This document shows positions 5,339-46,529 of a stretch of 64,000 nt of DNA, piece after piece. Origin of the DNA: a virus. The position numbers were made by a program, and so were the translations under genes. The notes beneath the pieces are model-generated. The model saw only the letters and a program-made list of their open reading frames with translations. It was not told the origin of the DNA and did not search any database. The stretch is taken from IMG/VR virus record IMGVR_UViG_3300025073_000026. The stretch is one strand, 5' to 3'. Every line of letters starts with the position of its first letter. The stretch's first letter is position 1.

Positions 5339-5369
5339 AAGGAAAATAACGGAGTGGCAGACTTTGGAG

Positions 5370-5446
5370 TCGGGGTGATTGGATTTGAACCAACGAAAAC
5401 CTCCTGGTCCCAGGCCAGGCGCTCTACCAAACTGAGCTACACCCCG
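5370..5446 (-). tRNA. tRNA-Pro(UGG), C33 variant
   Basis: CCTGG-CC TGG GA-CCAGG; 8-nt variable loop. Confidence 0.82.
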
Positions 5447-5468
5447 ATATTGTCAAACCAACTTCACT

Positions 5469-5678
5469 CTACTCCACAGGCACACATATGAACCGTCTGT
5501 AGGTCTTCCTACCCTTCCCGTCGCTGGAAATCCTGACCGCTCCACCCATAGGGCAGTTGAAGTTCCACTCTGGCAAACCCTCCTTATGCGTATGTGGCTT
5601 TGCCAGTCCGCACTTCGTTGGGCCTGCACAGCCTTTCTCATCAGCATAATCACAGATGAACTGTTGGGTCTTTTTCAT
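5469..5678 (-). CDS. small Cys-rich hypothetical protein
   Basis: ORF track; co-oriented cluster. Confidence 0.5.
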   Translation of the reverse strand: MKKTQQFICDYADEKGCAGPTKCGLAKPHTHKEGLPEWNFNCPMGGAVRISSDGKGRKTYRRFICVPVE

Positions 5679-6971: not shown

Positions 6972-7556
6972 CTAAAGACTTGGACATGGGATCCCTGCTT
7001 TCTGAAGGTACAGCGTCTTTTCCCCTATGTACTCCAACACAGCAGCTGGCACCAGTCCCTTGCAGGACTCCGAATTCCCAGTCCACTGCAATTCATTGCG
7101 GATATTGGTGCTGGAGATATCCGGGATCTTGATAAGGTGAGATGAGGGTACTCCATCCCGGCCTATGACCCATACAGGCACCATGGATAGTATCCCCCTA
7201 GCCTTGTGCCAGTTGTCAAAGTCAGCCCACTCGTCCTGGCCGACTATGAGATTGAAGATGTGATCTGGGTACTTCTCTTTCAGGTGCTTTAGCAGGTCCA
7301 CCGTGTACTTGGACTGAATGACACCCTCTACGGACATGACCTTAACTTTGCTGTAGTTAGTAGGGTCAAAAGCACGGACACACATCTGAATCCGATCCTC
7401 AAACGGAGCCATCTTCTTCCCAAAAGCATGTTCCCAGCAGGGAATGATCCACACTTGGTCAAACCCACCTACTGCTAAGGCATAGGTGACTGCAAAGACG
7501 TGCCCCATGTGAGGCGGGTCGAATGCTCCACCGAAGATACCAATTCGTTTCATCAT
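6972..7556 (-). CDS. nadD: nicotinate/nicotinamide-nucleotide adenylyltransferase
   Basis: IGIFGGAFDPPHMGH (HxGH), YTVDLL, IVGQD...W, ISSTNIR. Confidence 0.9.
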   Translation of the reverse strand: MMKRIGIFGGAFDPPHMGHVFAVTYALAVGGFDQVWIIPCWEHAFGKKMAPFEDRIQMCVRAFDPTNYSKVKVMSVEGVIQSKYTVDLLKHLKEKYPDHIFNLIVGQDEWADFDNWHKARGILSMVPVWVIGRDGVPSSHLIKIPDISSTNIRNELQWTGNSESCKGLVPAAVLEYIGEKTLYLQKAGIPCPSL

Positions 7557-9966: not shown

Positions 9967-11271
9967 TCATGGCTTGGCCTCGGCTTTGCCCGGACTCAGA
10001 CTTTCAATAGCCGGAAGGTTCTTCATGACATCCTCTAGAGCATCCTTCCCCTGCAAACCATCAATCAACCCAGGTGCCGTTTCCTGCATTAGATCAAACC
10101 CAAGACCTGCCCCGAGCATAGCCCCTGCAACTGCAGCGTTGGTATCTGTATCTCCCCCACCCCGGATAACCTTAGTCAGAGTATCAGCGAAGCCTCCATA
10201 CAGATGGTAGTTCTTGAGTGCCCAAAATCCCGCCCCGGCAGTCTTGTAGGTGTACCCGATTGCATGGGGTTCATTCAGATTGAGACCCTTGATATCCAAA
10301 CTGGCATATTTGATGATCTCAGGGTCATACTCCGATCCACGAGCAAGACCAATCTCGATAGCCTTGGGGATGCTACACCCACAAATCAAGGCAGCGATAG
10401 TACACGAGACCGACACTGCCGATGCAAGGCATCGTGGGTCAGCGTGTGTGACCCTACAGCATAGATCAGCCATCCTGATAGTCCACTCAGGGTTCCACGG
10501 CTTGACGATAGCCATACCGGCTGTCCGCATGACTGCCCCATTAGGAGCCGCCTGCCTGTTTGAGCCAACCCAATAGTTCTCCGCTATGGCTATCGGGTCG
10601 ACGTTGAACATCGGGTTGGTGAGAACCTCTACCGTGAGCCTACCCGCCCCCCGTCCATCCGTGAGGAGCCAGTTGATGAACTCGCCAGCAATGCTCTGGG
10701 CGATCTCAAGGATATCAGCATCAGGGGTTGCGGACAGTACCTTTGCAAGGATCAATGCCTGTGCAGTGTCATCGGTGAACTCACCCTTCTTGAAGGTGCC
10801 TCTAGGGGAATCTCTGTAGACGGCATCTTCCTTTGGTCCTACAACCATATGGCCGAACTCGTAGGGAGCTCCAAGGGCGTCCCCTATAGCCTGACCATAG
10901 AGGGCACCTTTGCGCCTGTCCTGGATGGTCTTGTACTCAGATGTACTTATCATGGCTGTAAACTCTGTGGGGGTCATCCTGGTTGCCTCTTCTCTAGGGA
11001 TGGCTGGTTCAACGGAAATCCGATTCTCTGCCAAGTGTTTGATTGTGGCAACATCCACATGACGTGGGACACTTTCCCGACAATAGGGGCAAACCCGGAC
11101 CATTGGGTCATCATCCGGGGCAGCCAGAACGTGCCCACATTCCAAGATGTCTTGCCACATGATAGGGATTTCAAATGCTGGCGTATGGGTATGGCCAAAG
11201 AGATTGCATTGGAATCTCCCTCGGGCTACTACCTTTCGTTCGGGTCCAGTCAACACCAACCTCACTTTCAT
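9967..11271 (-). CDS. ADP-ribosylglycohydrolase (DraG/ARH family) with N-terminal extension
   Basis: GALYGQAIGDALGAPYEF, FTDDTAQAL, NGAVMRTA, THADPRC, GGDTDTNAAVAGAMLGA; start uncertain. Confidence 0.92.
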   Translation of the reverse strand: MKVRLVLTGPERKVVARGRFQCNLFGHTHTPAFEIPIMWQDILECGHVLAAPDDDPMVRVCPYCRESVPRHVDVATIKHLAENRISVEPAIPREEATRMTPTEFTAMISTSEYKTIQDRRKGALYGQAIGDALGAPYEFGHMVVGPKEDAVYRDSPRGTFKKGEFTDDTAQALILAKVLSATPDADILEIAQSIAGEFINWLLTDGRGAGRLTVEVLTNPMFNVDPIAIAENYWVGSNRQAAPNGAVMRTAGMAIVKPWNPEWTIRMADLCCRVTHADPRCLASAVSVSCTIAALICGCSIPKAIEIGLARGSEYDPEIIKYASLDIKGLNLNEPHAIGYTYKTAGAGFWALKNYHLYGGFADTLTKVIRGGGDTDTNAAVAGAMLGAGLGFDLMQETAPGLIDGLQGKDALEDVMKNLPAIESLSPGKAEAKP

Positions 11272-11272
11272 A

Positions 11273-12235
11273 CTACTCTATCACGGAATTGATTCTCACG
11301 ACTACGGGCTCTTTCAATCCTGACCATCCGGACACAGGCCGAACCTTAATCTTACTGCCTACCTTCAAGCGATCCCTGCTAATGCACTCGTTGCACACCC
11401 AAACCAATCCTTGATCTGTATGTACCTGTACAGAAGCCCTCCGGCCGCACTCTTTGACTGACAAGACATCTGCAAATGCTTTCATTCCTTTCGATGGAAT
11501 ATAGCCCGCAATTTTCTTCATGACCCGACAGGTACCTGTGAGGCCATCTTTGGAGTCCTTCTGGCCTATGGCCTGATACTCATAGATTTTCTCTACTAGT
11601 ACCTGATCCGGGGAATAGACTACATACTCTGAGTGCTGCAGAGTACCACCCCAGCTTTCCGTTTTTCCCGCTACCCCCGCTACACTTTGGAAACCTTCTG
11701 TCTGGAGCCTGTCAAGATTCCATTTCTGCGCCCTCAGACATTCCTTGATCTTTCCAAGAGCCACCTTGACTTGAAGCAGGTAGCGGTGAGAGATACCTTG
11801 CCAACCTGATTGGGCATATGCCAACGCTTTGCCTGGATCACCTAGATAGATCCCCGACCCAAACATGCAAAGGCGACTTCCGGGTTTCAGGCCCTTAACG
11901 AGTATTTGGGAGATATTCATAGCAGACGTTCCGTGGTACAAAGTCCGAAGATTCCCGATGTTTCCGGCAACTTCCCGGAAGTGGGCATATCTCTCGGGTG
12001 AATTCTGGACATCATACGCTGCTATGCAGGCAGCTCCGGCAAATTTGGGGGCATCATGCTTTGAGCCCCCTACGACATTGAGCTGTTCTCCGTCTTTCTT
12101 GAACTCAGCGAGCGGTTTGGGGCGGGGGGCGTCTGGATTGAACTTTGGCTTTCGCATACCGGGGGCGACCACTGATGGCAAGGGTTTGGGGGCAATCTTT
12201 CTACTCTGCAACTTACTCTTTCGTTTCTTTGCCAA
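11273..12235 (-). CDS. PARP-like ADP-ribosyltransferase (H-Y-E clade)
   Basis: LYHGTS, FGSGIYL, LAYA, HSEYVVY; start reassigned to TTG after GAGG because the track start overlaps tRNA-Gln. Confidence 0.85.
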   Translation of the reverse strand: MAKKRKSKLQSRKIAPKPLPSVVAPGMRKPKFNPDAPRPKPLAEFKKDGEQLNVVGGSKHDAPKFAGAACIAAYDVQNSPERYAHFREVAGNIGNLRTLYHGTSAMNISQILVKGLKPGSRLCMFGSGIYLGDPGKALAYAQSGWQGISHRYLLQVKVALGKIKECLRAQKWNLDRLQTEGFQSVAGVAGKTESWGGTLQHSEYVVYSPDQVLVEKIYEYQAIGQKDSKDGLTGTCRVMKKIAGYIPSKGMKAFADVLSVKECGRRASVQVHTDQGLVWVCNECISRDRLKVGSKIKVRPVSGWSGLKEPVVVRINSVIE

Positions 12236-12257
12236 AACACCCTCATTACGACTAATG

Positions 12258-12332
12258 CTGGGGCGGCAGGATTCGGACCTGCGAGTTGTCTGGATCAAAG
12301 CCAGATGCCGTCGTCCACTTGGCTACGCCCCA
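12258..12332 (-). tRNA. tRNA-Gln(UUG), C55 variant
   Basis: U1-A72; TCTGG-CT TTG AT-CCAGA; T-loop TCCGAAT. Confidence 0.88.
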
Positions 12333-13200: not shown

Positions 13201-13300
13201 ATTGTTAGACAACGATAGGCAGACATAGATAAGAAAGCCAGCACTTTGTGCTTGCTCCCTTGTGATTACTGTAGTACAGTCCATCAAGGAGGATTGGTGG

Positions 13301-14575
13301 ATGACTCGCTCATCAAAAACTTCTCTCAAATTTGCTAATCCATCCAAACAGATAGCACTCCAATCCATCATCTCTGAATACTCTAAACTAACTCAATCCA
13401 TCATCGATACCATCTGGACACAAGCAGGGCCAATCCCAGCCCTGCTCCCAGCCAATATCACCAATGAACTCAAACAGCAAACATGGCTCTCCGCTCGGAT
13501 GATCCAATGTGCCGCAAAACAAGCTTCCGCCATCGTCCGTGGGACACAGGCCAAGCAGAAAAAACGCCTCTTCCTAATCGCTAAACTCAAAACCCAAGGC
13601 AAACTCAAACAAGCCCGAAAACTCGAACGACTCTGCAATGCTGCAGTGACCTCCAAGCCAACTCTCGACGGCAGTCTGGTTCCTATGGAACTGGACCGCC
13701 GCTTCATCCGATTTGATTTCACTCCGGAGACGGTAGCATTTGATTCATGGATTACTATCACATCAGTTGGTGACAAAAAGAAGCTAGTGCTCCCGTTCAA
13801 GAAAACCAAGCACATCCAGAAACTCATTGATAAGGGCGGTATCATGGCTCCAGGAGCCCGGATCACAGCCAAGAACATAACCCTGATGTTTGAGTTCAAG
13901 GACAAGGAACCTCAGGAACCCCATCCTCAGGAAGTTCCGAAAGAGATGATTGCGGGACTTGACATCGGGGTCAAGTCTTGCATTTCTGTTTCGTATAGCG
14001 ATGGTAGTTTTCATCAAGTATCAGAGGACGCCCATGGCTGGAGTCTTGACAAGATCAGTGACAAACTCTCAAGAAAGACGAAGGACTCGGGGGCATTTCA
14101 TAGGGCGCAAACTCATCGCACTAACTTCATAAACTGGTCGATTAATCAAGTAGACTTCCACGGTATCCGGGAGCTTAGGATTGAGGGTATCAGGAATCTC
14201 AGGTTGCGTAAGAGAGTTTCAAGGAAGTTGAGTCATTTTGTGTACCGGGAGATTTTTGACAGGTTGGGGATGAAAGCCGAAGAGGCGGATGTTCTGCTTT
14301 CTGAGGTTTCACCAGCCTATACAAGTCAAAGGTGCTCCGTTTGTGGTTGGACTCGTAGATCTAATCGAAAGGGAAAGCAATTCAAGTGCGGCAAATGCGG
14401 TTTTACTGCTGATGCAGATTTGAATGCTTCCGTGAACATTAGGTTGGACCTGAAGCCGATAGGCAAGAAGGAGCGGCTGAAGCGATTGAACCGGACGGGC
14501 TTTTATTGGCCGGTCGAGTTAGATCGTTTTGGGGCAGGAGTGTATAGTCCCTGCTGTCCTGGGAGCTTGGAGTGA
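13301..14575 (+). mobile_element. tnpB: IS200/IS605-type RNA-guided endonuclease TnpB (no tnpA nearby)
   Basis: RuvC-I GLDIG, RuvC-II IEG, YTSQRCSVCG...CGKCG zinc finger, RuvC-III DADLNASVNI; AGGAGG RBS; opposite strand to its neighbours. Confidence 0.9.
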
Positions 14576-16729: not shown

Positions 16730-17338
16730 TTATCGGCTGATTTCCATCTTTTTGATTCCCTTCAGATTCATACTGAGGCCGCACCACCAGCAATCCCAGT
16801 CGGGACCACCAAATTCCAGAGGGAAGGCGCAACTTGAACTCCTTGCCCATGCCTTCCTCTCTTTGGCCCTTACCTCAGTTACGTTTGCAAGGGCATACCC
16901 AAAAAGGGTAGGGACCAAAAGCAGATCGCCTATCTGGATGCCATTAATGGACGTGATCTGGTATGTCTCTTCGTTGTCGATGACCTCAGCGATAGCTTTG
17001 CTCTGCTCATCCGACAAATCCAGTTGCTTCCCATCCTTGCTAACAGACTGATCTAGGGTCTCCTGAATTACTAGTCCCTTTGGGGCAAGGAGGACCGGCC
17101 CTCCATTCCGCATATGGACAGCCCAGCCTACAGGTTTGGTATCAGGGTCAGCAGGTAGGACTGTCATCTCAGTTCTAGACGGGATCTTCCCCACAGGCTC
17201 AGGTTCACCCACTTTGAAGGTGGTCCCATCAGGCAAAGAAATCGTCCTCATTACCTTCCCAGGGGGAAACACCGTTGCCATGTCATCATCCGCTAACATG
17301 GCTGCGTCCTTTTCCAACTTGGTGGGATCATCGGTCAT
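16730..17338 (-). CDS. hypothetical protein, paralog B
   Basis: NGI..GD..L.P.LFGY.LA.V...FGG.D..CWWC..S.NL shared with 16130-16717. Confidence 0.7.
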   Translation of the reverse strand: MTDDPTKLEKDAAMLADDDMATVFPPGKVMRTISLPDGTTFKVGEPEPVGKIPSRTEMTVLPADPDTKPVGWAVHMRNGGPVLLAPKGLVIQETLDQSVSKDGKQLDLSDEQSKAIAEVIDNEETYQITSINGIQIGDLLLVPTLFGYALANVTEVRAKERKAWARSSSCAFPLEFGGPDWDCWWCGLSMNLKGIKKMEISR

Positions 17339-17366
17339 GGGGTGCTACCTCCGTTAGAAACCATAG

Positions 17367-17438
17367 AGCGGATGGCGGGATTTGAACCCGCAACACTCTG
17401 GCTGGCAGCCAGACACGCTACCATTGCGCTACATCCGC
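17367..17438 (-). tRNA. tRNA-Gly(GCC)
   Basis: TCTGG-CT GCC AG-CCAGA; U73. Confidence 0.92.
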
Positions 17439-17641
17439 AACAGAAACCACAAACCCACCACAATCGCTGGTACTCCTGTAGCCCAGATCATAAGGCTCAG
17501 AATCTTTGCATCTGGGGTTCCCTTATCAGCCCAACTCTGCAGCGAAAGGTACCGACCCTTCCACGGGTGGGTTTTGGGCAGAATGGGGATCATCATGAAA
17601 GTGATAGACCAAGCAGGTATCCAGACCAATTTCTTCCACAT
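17429..17641 (-). CDS. small membrane protein
   Basis: Two hydrophobic segments. Confidence 0.4.
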   Translation of the reverse strand: MWKKLVWIPAWSITFMMIPILPKTHPWKGRYLSLQSWADKGTPDAKILSLMIWATGVPAIVVGLWFLLRM

Positions 17642-22477: not shown

Positions 22478-22518
22478 ATACTACTCTACTGCCCTATAGA
22501 GGTAACAGGAGAAAACGG

Positions 22519-22593
22519 TCGGGGTGATTGGATCCTCGAACCAGCGACACCGAAACCCCAATCTCGTGGGCTACCTGGCTGCCCTACATCCCG
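22519..22593 (-). pseudogene. degenerate tRNA-Pro(GGG)
   Basis: tRNA-like arms, but 6-nt anticodon loop, 9-nt T-loop and mismatches in the acceptor and T stems. Confidence 0.65.
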
Positions 22594-23584: not shown

Positions 23585-23656
23585 CGGGAGTGACGAGAAT
23601 CGGACTCGCCTCATTGGCGTGACAAGCCAACCGCCTCACCAGAAGCGTACACCCCC
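23585..23656 (-). tRNA. tRNA-Asp(GUC), C55 variant
   Basis: TTGGC-TT GTC AC-GCCAA; G73; T-loop TCCGATT. Confidence 0.85.
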
Positions 23657-24132: not shown

Positions 24133-24457
24133 CGGGTGTGGGAGGAATTGAACCTCCAACCTACGGATTACCCGTGCCCCCAAGTTTCCTTGGGACGTGG
24201 ACTATCTCATCATCCTAATCTGCTAGGATGCCGGGGGCTGACGGGGCTTATTGCTTTGGCTCTGCTCATCCCCTAGTCTCTGCACCTTCCAACCTACACA
24301 CTAAAACCAATTCGGTTGGTTCGGCTCAGGGTCACCATGCCCACCCGTAGAGGTGGGTTTAGGCTTCCTTGAATTCTCCCGGTTTGTCATGCTGGGTTAC
24401 CCCAACAAGCTGCATTTTCCTACAGTCCGTTGCCCTAACCAATTGGGCCACACACCC
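24133..24457 (-). tRNA. tRNA-Asn(GUU) split by a group I intron (exons 24422-24457 and 24133-24170)
   Basis: Spliced loop ACGGA-CT GT|T AA-TCCGT; G73. Confidence 0.85.
24171..24421 (-). mobile_element. group I intron (251 nt, no ORF), IC3-like
   Basis: P AATTCAAGGAAGC, Q GACCCTGAGCC, R GTGCAGAGACTAG, S GAGATAGTCC; P1 exon CUGU pairs with IGS GCAG (U.G at the splice site); terminal omegaG. Confidence 0.88.
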
Positions 24458-37639: not shown

Positions 37640-38512
37640 CTATACTGTAAACTCGTAGACTACCCCCGCCTTGGCCCACCCGGCAAAGCCGGAGATGTTT
37701 TGCTGCTCCCAATTGTCTGCATAATGCATTAGGAACATCCGACTCTTAACATCATCAGGCAGAGTCTTCAGATCATCCAGAGGTGCATGGACGGCTCCGG
37801 GGAAGAACTGCACGTCATGGAAGTAGGTCTCAACATCCGGATACATACTTATCAACTCCGGGTCAAACCTGCTATCCGCTGAGATGAAAACCTTCCCATC
37901 CACCACCATCCCGTAAGAGATAAAGCTATCTGCCCATCCCCCGGATCCTTCAGGGATATGCTTGGTACGGAACAAATCAATATGAATGGGGCCATAGTCA
38001 AAAGACCATATCTCTCTGGGCTGATTGGTCTTCCACGTTGGGGTAACTACATCAAAGAAATCGTGTAGCCCTAATCGCTGTCCACTAGTCTGATCCTTCT
38101 CGTTCCACTCTAGCCCGCCCCGCAAGCTGTAGTCCCATAGGACCCTCTGATACTCAGGAGTAGCTATCAACTGAATTTTGGGATGCTTCATGAAGCGCAT
38201 ACCCACGTATCGGTTCATCAAGGCGAGACATTCTGCGGATCCAATATGATCACTGTGACTGTGAGTGGGTAAGAAACATCGGATGTCTGTAGGCTTCAAC
38301 CCTGTGGTTTCTTTGAGTGCCCTTTGACCCGTGGCTCCAAAGTCCACCAAGATGTGGGTACTCCCTTTGATCAACAGGAAGTTGGTCTGGTTGTTCTTCT
38401 CAGCAAAGGCCGAACCCACCCCAATGAAGAACACTTGGAGTCGATTCGGATCACCACATGAGAGTGATAGGACTTCTGAACCTGTTGGCCTAAGAAATGG
38501 TTTCTGGTCCAT
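37640..38512 (-). CDS. metallo-beta-lactamase-fold hydrolase (RNase Z / phosphodiesterase-like)
   Basis: FIGVGSAF, ILVDFG, THSHSDH, KHIP, SADS, FHD, LMHY. Confidence 0.85.
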   Translation of the reverse strand: MDQKPFLRPTGSEVLSLSCGDPNRLQVFFIGVGSAFAEKNNQTNFLLIKGSTHILVDFGATGQRALKETTGLKPTDIRCFLPTHSHSDHIGSAECLALMNRYVGMRFMKHPKIQLIATPEYQRVLWDYSLRGGLEWNEKDQTSGQRLGLHDFFDVVTPTWKTNQPREIWSFDYGPIHIDLFRTKHIPEGSGGWADSFISYGMVVDGKVFISADSRFDPELISMYPDVETYFHDVQFFPGAVHAPLDDLKTLPDDVKSRMFLMHYADNWEQQNISGFAGWAKAGVVYEFTV

Positions 38513-44843: not shown

Positions 44844-46529
44844 ATGGCAACAAAACTAGGACGTAAAGAGATGGTAGCCGGACATGGGCCTGAGGATTTC
44901 GAAGTTCAGGGTCGGGCTGCTAAGGACCAAGGTGACTTTGGCCCAGATGTCGGTGTGGCCGACTGTGCGTGTGTGAATCAGTTTGGCACTGTCGATGGGG
45001 ACAAAGCCAATAACGCGAAGTATTACAGTGGGGCTGTAGTCAAGAGTCGGAAAACAGGCCAGTGGTATGTCTACCTGGAGTGGGGACGTATCTTTGCCGG
45101 GAGGTCCTGGGAAGGTGGTTTTCACGGGCAGGACTACCAATTCGTCCAGTGCAACGGAGAGGCTGATGCACGGGACTTCTTTGCCGATCAGTTGAAGTCC
45201 AAGAACATCAAGCGTGTGGAGCAGAAGGTCATCGCTGGTGTGACAGTCTGGGCAGCCAAGGCTGGTAAGGATGGCTACCTTGTCCAGAGTCTGGCAACCA
45301 GAGAACGGGGCCTCCCCGACTGCTACAAGATCAAAGATTCCACGGGTATCGCCCCCAAGCCCGTGACACCTTTGGCAACTCCCAAGAGCAAGAAAGACGT
45401 TAAGACTCCGACTGTAGTAAAGCCTCTCCGCTCCTTCCAGCCTCAGGTGATCGCTCTGGCGCAGGCTCTGGTGGGCGGTGTGCGGACATACACCAAGGCT
45501 CTAGCAGCTGCTTCCGGGGTGTCACCCACCATGGATGCCATTACCAACGTTCGGGACAATCTGATCCCCGCTGCTCTCCAGCGGATCAAGATTGTGGGTA
45601 CGGACGTAGAAAAACAGATCAAGGACATCGACCTCAGAGACCTGTCGAAAATGGTCTCAGCCTTGGTTCCCCGTCCCATCCCGAGGACTGGCATGGACGA
45701 ACGGGAAGCCATCCTGAACACAGACAACATCCTGCGGCTTCAGCAGGATCTAGACACATTCGAGTCATCCCTGCAGGGTGAATCCTTTGACGTGGAGACC
45801 ACAGCTCCGTCTGTGGACCCTGATAGTATGCTCAGTGCACGCCTGACGTGGCTGGATATTAGCAGTGGGTTGGGTGAATGGGTAGCCCAAACCTACATGA
45901 GGATGTCCCGCAATAGGCACTCCAATGTGCGGAGTATGCGGGTCATCAATGTCTTCTCTGTGGAACGCCCTGATCGTGATAGCCGTTTCCTGGCAGCAAC
46001 GAACGCACTGGCAGCTAGCAGGAAAGGCCAGCAGCTGGGTGACATCCGACCGGAACTCCAGCCTTCCACCAGACCCGACATCACTGACATTGGGGCTCTT
46101 GCCCGGGAAGCTAACGTATTCCTTGGCATCCATGGGACACGTAGTGTCAATGTATCCCCCATCCTGTCAACTCATTTCAGAATGCCGAAGTCTCTTATTG
46201 GTGTTCAGATCCAGGGCGCCGCCTTCGGGTCGGGCGTATACGTAGCAGACGACAGAGGCAAGTCGGCACAGTATGTGGGGGCGTCCGCATCTGTTTACGG
46301 GTCAGGTGGTGGTATCCGTAATCGGGGCAATTTCATGTTCTTGTGCGATGTGGCGGGCGGTAAATTCTTCTATCCGACTCAAGCATGGGGGATTGGAGAT
46401 CGGTGCCCTAATGGTTGTGACACCGTCTATGCCCACCCGTCCAGATGCTACAGCCTCCAGAACAACGAGTATGTCTGTTTCCAGCCGGAGCGGATGCGTA
46501 TCCGCTATTTGGTTGAAGTAGCCCTGTAG
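44844..46529 (+). CDS. WGR-domain PARP-like ADP-ribosyltransferase
   Basis: WYVYLEWGRI (WGR), helical region, IHGTR, FGSGVYVAD, KSAQY, FLCDVAGG, QNNEYV. Confidence 0.88.
   Translation: MATKLGRKEMVAGHGPEDFEVQGRAAKDQGDFGPDVGVADCACVNQFGTVDGDKANNAKYYSGAVVKSRKTGQWYVYLEWGRIFAGRSWEGGFHGQDYQFVQCNGEADARDFFADQLKSKNIKRVEQKVIAGVTVWAAKAGKDGYLVQSLATRERGLPDCYKIKDSTGIAPKPVTPLATPKSKKDVKTPTVVKPLRSFQPQVIALAQALVGGVRTYTKALAAASGVSPTMDAITNVRDNLIPAALQRIKIVGTDVEKQIKDIDLRDLSKMVSALVPRPIPRTGMDEREAILNTDNILRLQQDLDTFESSLQGESFDVETTAPSVDPDSMLSARLTWLDISSGLGEWVAQTYMRMSRNRHSNVRSMRVINVFSVERPDRDSRFLAATNALAASRKGQQLGDIRPELQPSTRPDITDIGALAREANVFLGIHGTRSVNVSPILSTHFRMPKSLIGVQIQGAAFGSGVYVADDRGKSAQYVGASASVYGSGGGIRNRGNFMFLCDVAGGKFFYPTQAWGIGDRCPNGCDTVYAHPSRCYSLQNNEYVCFQPERMRIRYLVEVAL

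Follow-up and report, generated by a model that had tools for sequence, protein, structure and literature searches.

On the minus strand of the viral record IMGVR_UViG_3300025073_000026, within the 64,000-nucleotide stretch analysed here (the window), a gene resembling tRNA-Asn is broken inside its anticodon loop by 251 nucleotides. The locus raises the question of what this insert is, where exactly its ends lie, which tRNA is obtained when it is removed and whether it is still able to leave the transcript. A first-pass annotation had read the insert as a group I intron at anticodon positions 35/36 of a phage tRNA-Asn(GUU). The analysis described below gives us considerable confidence that the tRNA-Asn(GUU) gene of a large tailed phage is indeed split between nucleotides 35 and 36 by a group I intron lacking an ORF.

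The window looks like a part of a large phage. It carries 33 tRNA genes, all situated on one strand and interleaved with small ORFs; 31 of them are found by ARAGORN, and the other two are a tRNA-Asp recognized by Rfam only and the split Asn gene. The tRNA-Asp(GUC) gene (23585-23656, minus strand) has a weak D arm, is missed by ARAGORN at its default settings and scores 47.5 bits in Rfam. With tRNA-Asp and the split tRNA-Asn included, the tRNAs of the window cover all 20 amino acids. A tRNA-like gene at 22517-22593 (minus strand) has a 6-nt anticodon loop, UUGGGG, and is labelled 'tRNA-??? (gg)' by ARAGORN; its Rfam tRNA score is 30.7 bits against a cut-off of 29, and it is possibly a derivative of a Pro(GGG) gene.

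The protein genes of the window include those for a virion structural protein (phrog_1383), an endolysin with a peptidoglycan-binding domain, a Thg1-like tRNA-His guanylyltransferase of a phage family (31931-32791, minus strand; phrog_4717, E 9e-86), DNA methyltransferases and HNH endonucleases. No capsid, terminase or portal gene was recognized within this 64 kb. Three regions (9967-12298, minus strand; 37640-38512, minus strand; 44844-46529, plus strand) between them carry a gene for an ADP-ribosylglycohydrolase adjoining a PARP-like gene, a second PARP-like gene (561 aa) and a gene for the anti-Pycsar protein Apyc1. These look like genes for counter-defence or host takeover. An ORF similar to TnpB/Cas12f is located on the opposite strand inside the tRNA region (13262-14575, plus strand; Pfam Cas12f1-like TNB, E 7e-20) and is a transposase according to PHROG.

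Close DNA relatives of the window were not found among the GenBank phages, either by blastn with the pre-tRNA or by megablast with the surrounding 12 kb. The ORF adjoining tRNA-Asn has no relatives in IMG/VR, and the relatives of the Thg1-like protein in IMG/VR are at most 55% identical to it and have no tRNA genes in their flanks. The lack of a near match in the phage collection, together with the occurrence of the same intron family in bacterial MAGs, would be compatible with a bacterial or chimeric contig, in which case the insert would be one more bacterial tRNA-Asn intron. Such an origin is, however, highly improbable in view of the number of tRNA genes among small ORFs in 64 kb and the presence of the virion protein, the endolysin, the phage-family Thg1-like enzyme, Apyc1 and the HNH endonucleases. 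Furthermore, housekeeping bacterial genes were absent from the 34 ORFs scanned, and the best matches to GenBank phage proteins, at about 30% amino-acid identity, are to the Xanthomonas jumbo phages X1, BUDD and XacN1.

The 5' exon of the split phage gene contains the acceptor strand GGGUGUG, the D arm, the anticodon-stem strand ACGGA and the loop nucleotides C32-U33-G34-U35; the 5' splice site is situated directly after U35 (24422). The 3' exon continues with U36-A37-A38, the stem strand UCCGU, a 5-nt variable loop, a T arm formed by GGAGG/CCUCC and the acceptor strand CACACCC. It ends with the discriminator base G73 (24133), and CCA is not encoded. Upon joining the two exons in silico, a normal cloverleaf is obtained with a 5-bp anticodon stem and the anticodon loop CUGUUAA, that is, a tRNA-Asn(GUU), which ARAGORN calls tRNA-Asn. 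G73, with which the restored GUU was said to agree in the first-pass annotation, is invariant in all 13 sequences of the alignment used to count base pairs (A2), and GUU is likewise common to them. G73 suits asparagine identity by the rule established for E. coli. The acceptor of the window tRNA opens with G1-C72, whereas U1-A72 is found in 11 of the 12 other aligned tRNA-Asn genes. Because of this difference, the tRNA is atypical for asparagine apart from its anticodon and G73.

ARAGORN run on the window at its default settings does not report the gene; when introns are allowed, the gene appears as tRNA-Asn(gtt) i(37,251). The prediction that standard tRNA callers miss this gene thus holds for default ARAGORN. 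By the statement of its authors, tRNAscan-SE 2.0 was not built for the detection of group I introns (PMC8450103). The gene was also said to be the only Asn tRNA in the window, and it is the single tRNA-Asn found there by ARAGORN and Rfam.

The insert has a recognizable group I core. A check with an Infernal-type group I model had been proposed, and the Rfam model RF00028 (Intron_gpI) matches the minus strand at 24178-24432 over its full length (model positions 1-253), with a score of 71.0 bits and an E-value of 5.3e-16; the gathering cut-off of this family is 50 bits. The coordinates and the length of 251 nt given in the first-pass annotation are exact, the first base being A (24421) and the last base being the omegaG (24171). 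The intron was described as having no ORF, and its sense strand contains merely a 30-aa GTG frame, which runs into the exon.

A structure model was drawn from the window, comprising the cloverleaf, P1, P2, P3, P4, P5/P5a, P6/P6a, the P7 pseudoknot, an extra helix between P7 and the 3' strand of P3, P8, P9.0 and P9 (Table 1). The model was counted on alignment A2, which has 13 sequences and 89 pairs. In the model, 91.4% of the cells of this alignment are paired, a value that drops to 36-46% if the 3' partners are slid by 1-3 columns. Changes on both sides are found at 65 of the 89 pairs, and none of 500 shuffles matched the observed pairing values. The Rfam E-value and the covariation over 13 homologues rule out a chance resemblance.

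Table 1. Positions of the two exons, the intron and the helices of the ribozyme in the window, with the evidence for each
Feature	Positions	Strand	Evidence
5' exon of tRNA-Asn(GUU)	24457-24422	minus	Sequence; ARAGORN -i; cloverleaf helices covary in A2
Group I intron, 251 nt	24421-24171	minus	RF00028 match; covariation
3' exon of tRNA-Asn(GUU)	24170-24133	minus	Sequence; ARAGORN -i; 13-sequence alignment A2
P1, exon C32-U33-G34-U35 and intron A+1 (24425-24421) with intron UGCAG (24414-24410)	24410-24425	minus	
P2 hairpin, 8 bp, GUAA (GNRA) loop	24389-24408	minus	8/8 pairs compensatory; present in MFE fold
P3, 5' strand CCGGG (partner 24231-24235)	24378-24382	minus	100% of cells paired; 3/5 pairs compensatory
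P4-P5-P5a domain (P4, 24367-24373 with 24325-24331; P5/P5a, 24334-24364)	24325-24373	minus	P4 strands invariant; P5a covaries at 6/6 pairs
P6/P6a hairpin	24285-24324	minus	100% of cells paired; P6a, 6/6 pairs compensatory
P7, 5' strand G-A(bulge)-GACUA (partner 24199-24204)	24274-24280	minus	Invariant, 13/13
P7.1-like extra helix, 31 nt, between P7 and P3 3' strand, GGGG/CCCC closure	24243-24273	minus	Rfam alignment; covariation
P3, 3' strand CCCGG	24231-24235	minus	Pair count in A2
P8 hairpin, 7 bp	24211-24230	minus	6/7 pairs compensatory; present in MFE fold
P7, 3' strand UAGUCC	24199-24204	minus	Invariant
P9.0 enclosing P9 (P9.0, 24196-24198 with 24172-24174; P9, 24179-24194, 6 bp, GAAA loop)	24172-24198	minus	Covariation at 3/3 P9.0 pairs and 6/6 P9 pairs

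The conserved core consists of P3, P5a, P6a and P8, which show compensatory changes, and of P4 and P7, which are invariant; the P3-P8 and P4-P6 domains and the P7 pseudoknot are all supported by the alignment. Within P7, G 24278 and C 24200 presumably form the guanosine-binding pair, by homology to the Tetrahymena numbering. The P7.1-like helix is an insertion relative to the Rfam model; its four closing pairs covary, and 69% of its cells are paired. The window departs from canonical pairing at three places, with a U·U in P2, an A·G in the outermost pair of P9.0 and an A·C in P4, the last of which is common to all 13 sequences. The minimum free energy (MFE) fold of the intron alone regains P2, P3, P5a, P6a, P7.1, P8 and P9, with a thermodynamic z-score of only -1.4. 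The intron is real, well preserved and probably self-splicing.

The 5' splice site had been placed by means of a P1 helix between exon CUGU and intron GCAG, with a U·G pair at the junction. The Rfam alignment agrees with this placement, setting the conserved U·G pair of the P1 of the model on U35 (24422) and G 24413. The exon pairs C32-G, U33-A, G34-C and U35·G are invariant in all 13 sequences, and the next pair inwards, between intron A+1 and U, covaries (A-U in six sequences, C-G in two and G-C in two). At the other end of the intron, P9.0 is formed by the three bases that precede the terminal G and the three that follow P7. Its first pair varies between AU and GC, its second among AU, CG, GC and UA, and its third between GC and UA. 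Because this covarying helix adjoins the terminal G, the position of the omegaG at 24171 is fixed independently of the exons. U-1, an omegaG before UAA and the loop CUGUUAA are present in the window and in its 18 homologues without exception (19 of 19 sequences), which upholds the claim that the omegaG before UAA restores GUU. The fold, the geometry of the splice sites and the tRNA identity features are direct observations on these sequences.

The first-pass annotation had itself named a junction that would overturn this assignment, namely CU-GGU-AA. Splicing would then occur after U33, with G 24173 as the terminal base, and would yield the loop CUGGUAA and a tRNA-Thr(GGU). The intron ends in GGG, which in the window formally offers another terminal G two bases further upstream, and ARAGORN labels the product of a splice after U33 as tRNA-Thr; when set to accept introns, the same program wrongly reports several homologues as Thr(tgt). 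Nevertheless, this junction fails. In P1, U33 pairs with A and not with G, so that the splice site would have no U·G pair, and G 24173 is paired within the covarying P9.0 helix, which would be broken. The terminal G needed for splicing after U33 is present in only 7 of the 19 homologues, and the anticodons obtained in this way are inconsistent, being GGU, UGU, AGU or CGU. The acceptor end of the split gene, with G2-C71 and G73, also differs from that of the real tRNA-Thr(CGU) of the window, which has C2-G71 and U73. Since P1, P9.0 and the comparative data oppose it, the Thr(GGU) reading is rejected and has almost no chance of being correct. The first-pass reading is upheld in each of its structural claims.

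Although the ends of the tRNA-Asn intron are well defined, the insert could be a decayed relic that no longer splices. In that case the tRNA-Asn would be a pseudogene, and the phage would use the tRNA-Asn of its host or a copy outside the window. The window copy is without an endonuclease gene, has the lowest Rfam score of the relatives scored (the others range from 76 to 106 bits) and contains two private mismatches, the U·U of P2 and the A·G of P9.0. However, 86 of the 89 model pairs are canonical in the window, and the positions that are invariant over the 13 homologues, which by definition are intact in it, include P1, P4, P7 and the omegaG, as well as J4/5 and J8/7 as placed by our reading. 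The G1-C72 acceptor end is unusual, but both exons still form a perfect cloverleaf. A related phage (L051, described below) retains an uninterrupted tRNA-Asn beside the interrupted one, and the phage of the window may also have a second, uninterrupted copy elsewhere in its genome. In the window an otherwise complete 20-amino-acid tRNA set would lack Asn alone if the split gene were not used. Taken together, these observations make a relic decidedly unlikely.

Assuming that the intron is active, the precursor would be co-transcribed with the adjacent tRNA genes of the minus strand. The P3-P8 and P4-P6 domains would make up the core of the folded ribozyme, with P2, the P7.1-like helix and P9 at its periphery, and P1 would arise by pairing of the exon nucleotides C32-U35 with the internal guide GCAG. 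The bond after U35, which is held in the U·G wobble, would then be attacked by a free guanosine occupying the site in P7. The terminal G (24171), placed by P9.0, would then take over the guanosine site, and U35 would be joined to U36. Inspection by eye of the 3' exon UAAUCC and the P1 loop GGAAAA revealed no pairing that could represent P10. Instead of a P10 helix, the 5-bp anticodon stem probably holds the exons together, as it does in other tRNA introns. The product would be a normal tRNA-Asn with the loop CUGUUAA, the only Asn tRNA beside a set for the 19 other amino acids. We infer that catalysis is performed by the intron itself and that the tRNA-Asn is used during infection.

The known introns in bacterial tRNA genes provide a framework for comparison. 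The four classical types listed in the first-pass annotation agree with a survey by Williams (bioRxiv 2020, doi 10.1101/2020.01.27.920355), in which Leu.3Ug, fMet.2Ug, Ile2.5Ug and Arg.5Ug all belong to subgroup IC3 and are located at positions 34/35 of tRNA-Leu(UAA), 33/34 of tRNA-fMet and 36/37 of both tRNA-Ile(CAU) and tRNA-Arg(CCU). That survey was restricted to bacteria and archaea; after its screen of about 81,000 genome assemblies, 21 tRNA/site combinations were known instead of 4. The Asn 35/36 site is among them as class "Asn.4Ug", with the seed Pam37.Asn.4Ug in the supplementary alignment. The text of this preprint names neither phages nor viruses. The window intron resembles the Asn.4Ug class in several respects: the tRNA is tRNA-Asn GUU, the insertion is at loop site 4, equivalent to 35/36, U-1 and the omegaG are the same, and so is the P4 strand, which in the seed reads AAUUCAAGGAA...CCCUGA. 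This class was also confirmed directly in MAGs of several phyla and in Patescibacteria. Unlike these, the window intron resides in a large phage that has its own tRNA set, and it is at most 68% identical to any copy found.

The pre-tRNA-Ile of Azoarcus is the structural model of the classical tRNA introns. The window intron is similar to the classical IC3 introns in being a small ORF-less ribozyme located in the anticodon loop, in having a P1 formed by loop bases and exons held together by the stem, and in the lack of a convincing P10. It differs from them in the tRNA, in the insertion site and in the 31-nt helix between P7 and the 3' strand of P3. To our knowledge, IC3 introns have no P7.1/P7.2 element at this place, and P7.1 and P7.2 belong to introns of the IA type. 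By this mark of IC3, the Asn introns fall outside that subgroup, the element being present in 13 of 13 homologues. P7.1 and P7.2 are counted among the class-defining elements (Hausner 2014). In the window intron and all its Asn relatives, the element between P7 and the P3 3' strand is 27-40 nt long.

A structural resemblance is found to the two introns in orf142 of the Staphylococcus phage Twort, I2 and I3, which we take to be of subgroup IA2 and which RF00028 locates at 16973-17197 and 17248-17506 of NC_007021. Their core strands AAUUCA(A/G)GGAA, CCUGAGC(C/U)AAGC, GUGCA..GACUA and GAUAUAGUC align with those of the Asn introns, as does the inserted P7.1/P7.2 region between P7 and the P3 3' strand. 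In addition, the hairpin UAUUCCG.UAGGAAGUA of I2 is common with one of the homologues (L162). However, the Twort introns are situated in a protein-coding gene, and the insertion in the window forms one long helix rather than two clear hairpins. Because the core strands and the inserted region are common to the Twort introns, the architecture looks IA-like rather than IC3. This comparison suggests, rather than proves, that the window intron belongs to an IA-like subgroup. The site and the class are already catalogued for bacteria; modestly new are the occurrence of the intron in a phage and a ribozyme that does not look like IC3.

Pattern scans and a sample of Patescibacteria yielded 18 related introns in the same tRNA and at the same site. 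IMG/VR contains one homologue, on the 436-kb phage contig IMGVR_UViG_3300032782_000001 (L051; intron-containing gene at L051:1926-2227). Six were found in GTDB species genomes, namely an uncultured bacterium, a Pedobacter MAG, Blastocatellia, Elusimicrobia, Stahlbacteria and a short contig binned as Enterobacteriaceae, and nine more on metagenome contigs. Pattern matches in other CPR and archaeal genomes (L243, L238, L177 and others) turned out to be chance matches in coding sequence and were discarded.

The L051 contig comes from a huge phage with a tRNA array of at least 35 genes. It has the same intron site and the same P1 as the window, and the two are 65% identical across the aligned pre-tRNA. 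In contrast to the window, its intron is 227 nt long, a second, uninterrupted tRNA-Asn is located 560 bp downstream, the acceptor begins with U1-A72 and CCA is encoded.

In the Patescibacteria sample, RF00028 matches were found in 62 of 151 genomes (G001-G151; loci L472-L502). ARAGORN called 11 of the best 30 loci tRNA-Asn and four 'Thr(tgt)'. Two of these four were inspected, and both are the Asn intron miscalled; the other two are probably the same. Asn 35/36 introns thus account for 11-15 of the best 30 loci in this 151-genome sample. The first-pass annotation had described these introns as reported mainly from Patescibacteria (CPR), and in this sample they are indeed common. ARAGORN also assigned three of the best 30 loci to introns in tRNA-Phe(GAA). 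The call 'tRNA-Thr(tgt) i(33,...)' was obtained for L051:1926-2227, L270:1011-1302 (minus strand), L478, L502, L481 and L493. It arises from the preference of the program for CU/.../UGUAA over CUGU/...G/UAA. The first four of these loci were inspected and are tRNA-Asn 35/36 introns, and the last two carry the same call. Automated counts of introns per isoacceptor are therefore off.

The pre-tRNA of the window aligns end to end with the 18 other members of the family, with identities of 52-68%. Besides the window, the 19 sequences compared include 12 non-CPR homologues and six short CPR copies taken from the Patescibacteria sample. A maximum-likelihood tree of these pre-tRNAs (about 330 columns) nests the window among the other members, in a clade of seven (support 97/96) that also includes L051, L358, L270, L291, L269 and L292. 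Its nearest neighbour, with 68% identity, is L358, a contig on which tRNA-Asn is situated between tRNA-Gln and tRNA-Glu. The six CPR copies, all short and ORF-less, form a group of their own and are 52-56% identical to the window.

The first-pass annotation had suggested that a phage copy points to a transfer route and had called for a phylogeny against CPR and phage introns. The tree does not support a CPR-to-phage route: the window groups with non-CPR copies and with that of the huge phage. The search pattern used to collect the non-CPR set was based on the window and L051 and so favours similar sequences, and the alignment has about 330 columns; the tree is therefore read only as giving no sign of a direct CPR-to-phage transfer.

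The window intron is probably immobile by itself, since it has no homing-endonuclease gene. A free-standing homing endonuclease was looked for beside tRNA-Asn, and the flanking ORFs gave only sub-threshold zinc-ribbon matches; HNH genes are located 19-20 kb from the tRNA-Asn gene. LAGLIDADG ORFs, or small ORFs that weakly match HNH, occur in some relatives, and the intron family as a whole therefore is or was mobile. In a Blastocatellia MAG (L229:2435-3402), an intron of the Asn lineage is 893 nt long and contains a LAGLIDADG_2 ORF of 224 aa (E 5e-34). A long CPR intron (L482) contains a small ORF whose weak HNH match (E 1e-3) is below the Pfam cut-off. Loss of the recognition site for endonucleases directed against the intact anticodon-loop DNA of tRNA-Asn might explain why the window intron is kept. 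A broader proposal is that large phages keep a tRNA-Asn intron lineage of their own (the window, L051 and L358), IA-like and similar to the Twort introns rather than IC3, and serve as a reservoir or vehicle that spreads tRNA introns across distant bacterial phyla. We put both ideas forward as speculations that are unlikely on present evidence.

Other group I introns were seen in viral contigs of IMG/VR. ARAGORN places one in a tRNA-Gln(CUG) gene (L072:7005-7241, plus strand) and one in a tRNA-Leu(UAA) gene (L074:6333-6624, minus strand). A 101-kb contig (L070) has two introns among its tRNA genes (5366-5568 and 7024-7270, both on the minus strand), where the split tRNA was identified as Leu by eye only. 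The introns of these three contigs carry a P7.1-type insertion like that of the Asn introns. About 30 further group I introns in IMG/VR share the P4/P5 strands of the Asn introns and are located outside tRNA genes, mostly in proviruses from isolate genomes (this set includes L120, L123, L125-L129, L131-L134, L137, L139-L141, L144 and L149-L153). Many of them begin tens of bases past a TATAAT-like box and a conserved (A/T)TTGCCC motif.

The intron of the window adds nothing to present knowledge of the ribozyme as such. Its significance is in part practical, as default tRNA finders would list Asn as missing from a phage whose tRNAs in fact cover all 20 amino acids. Phage introns tend toward conserved protein-coding genes, according to a review of bacterial group I introns (Hausner 2014), and reviews place the group I introns of phages in protein genes and tRNA introns in bacteria. 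The window, L051 and the tRNA-Gln and tRNA-Leu cases from IMG/VR indicate that these two intron worlds overlap, and they offer a concrete system for studying how tRNA introns move between phyla.
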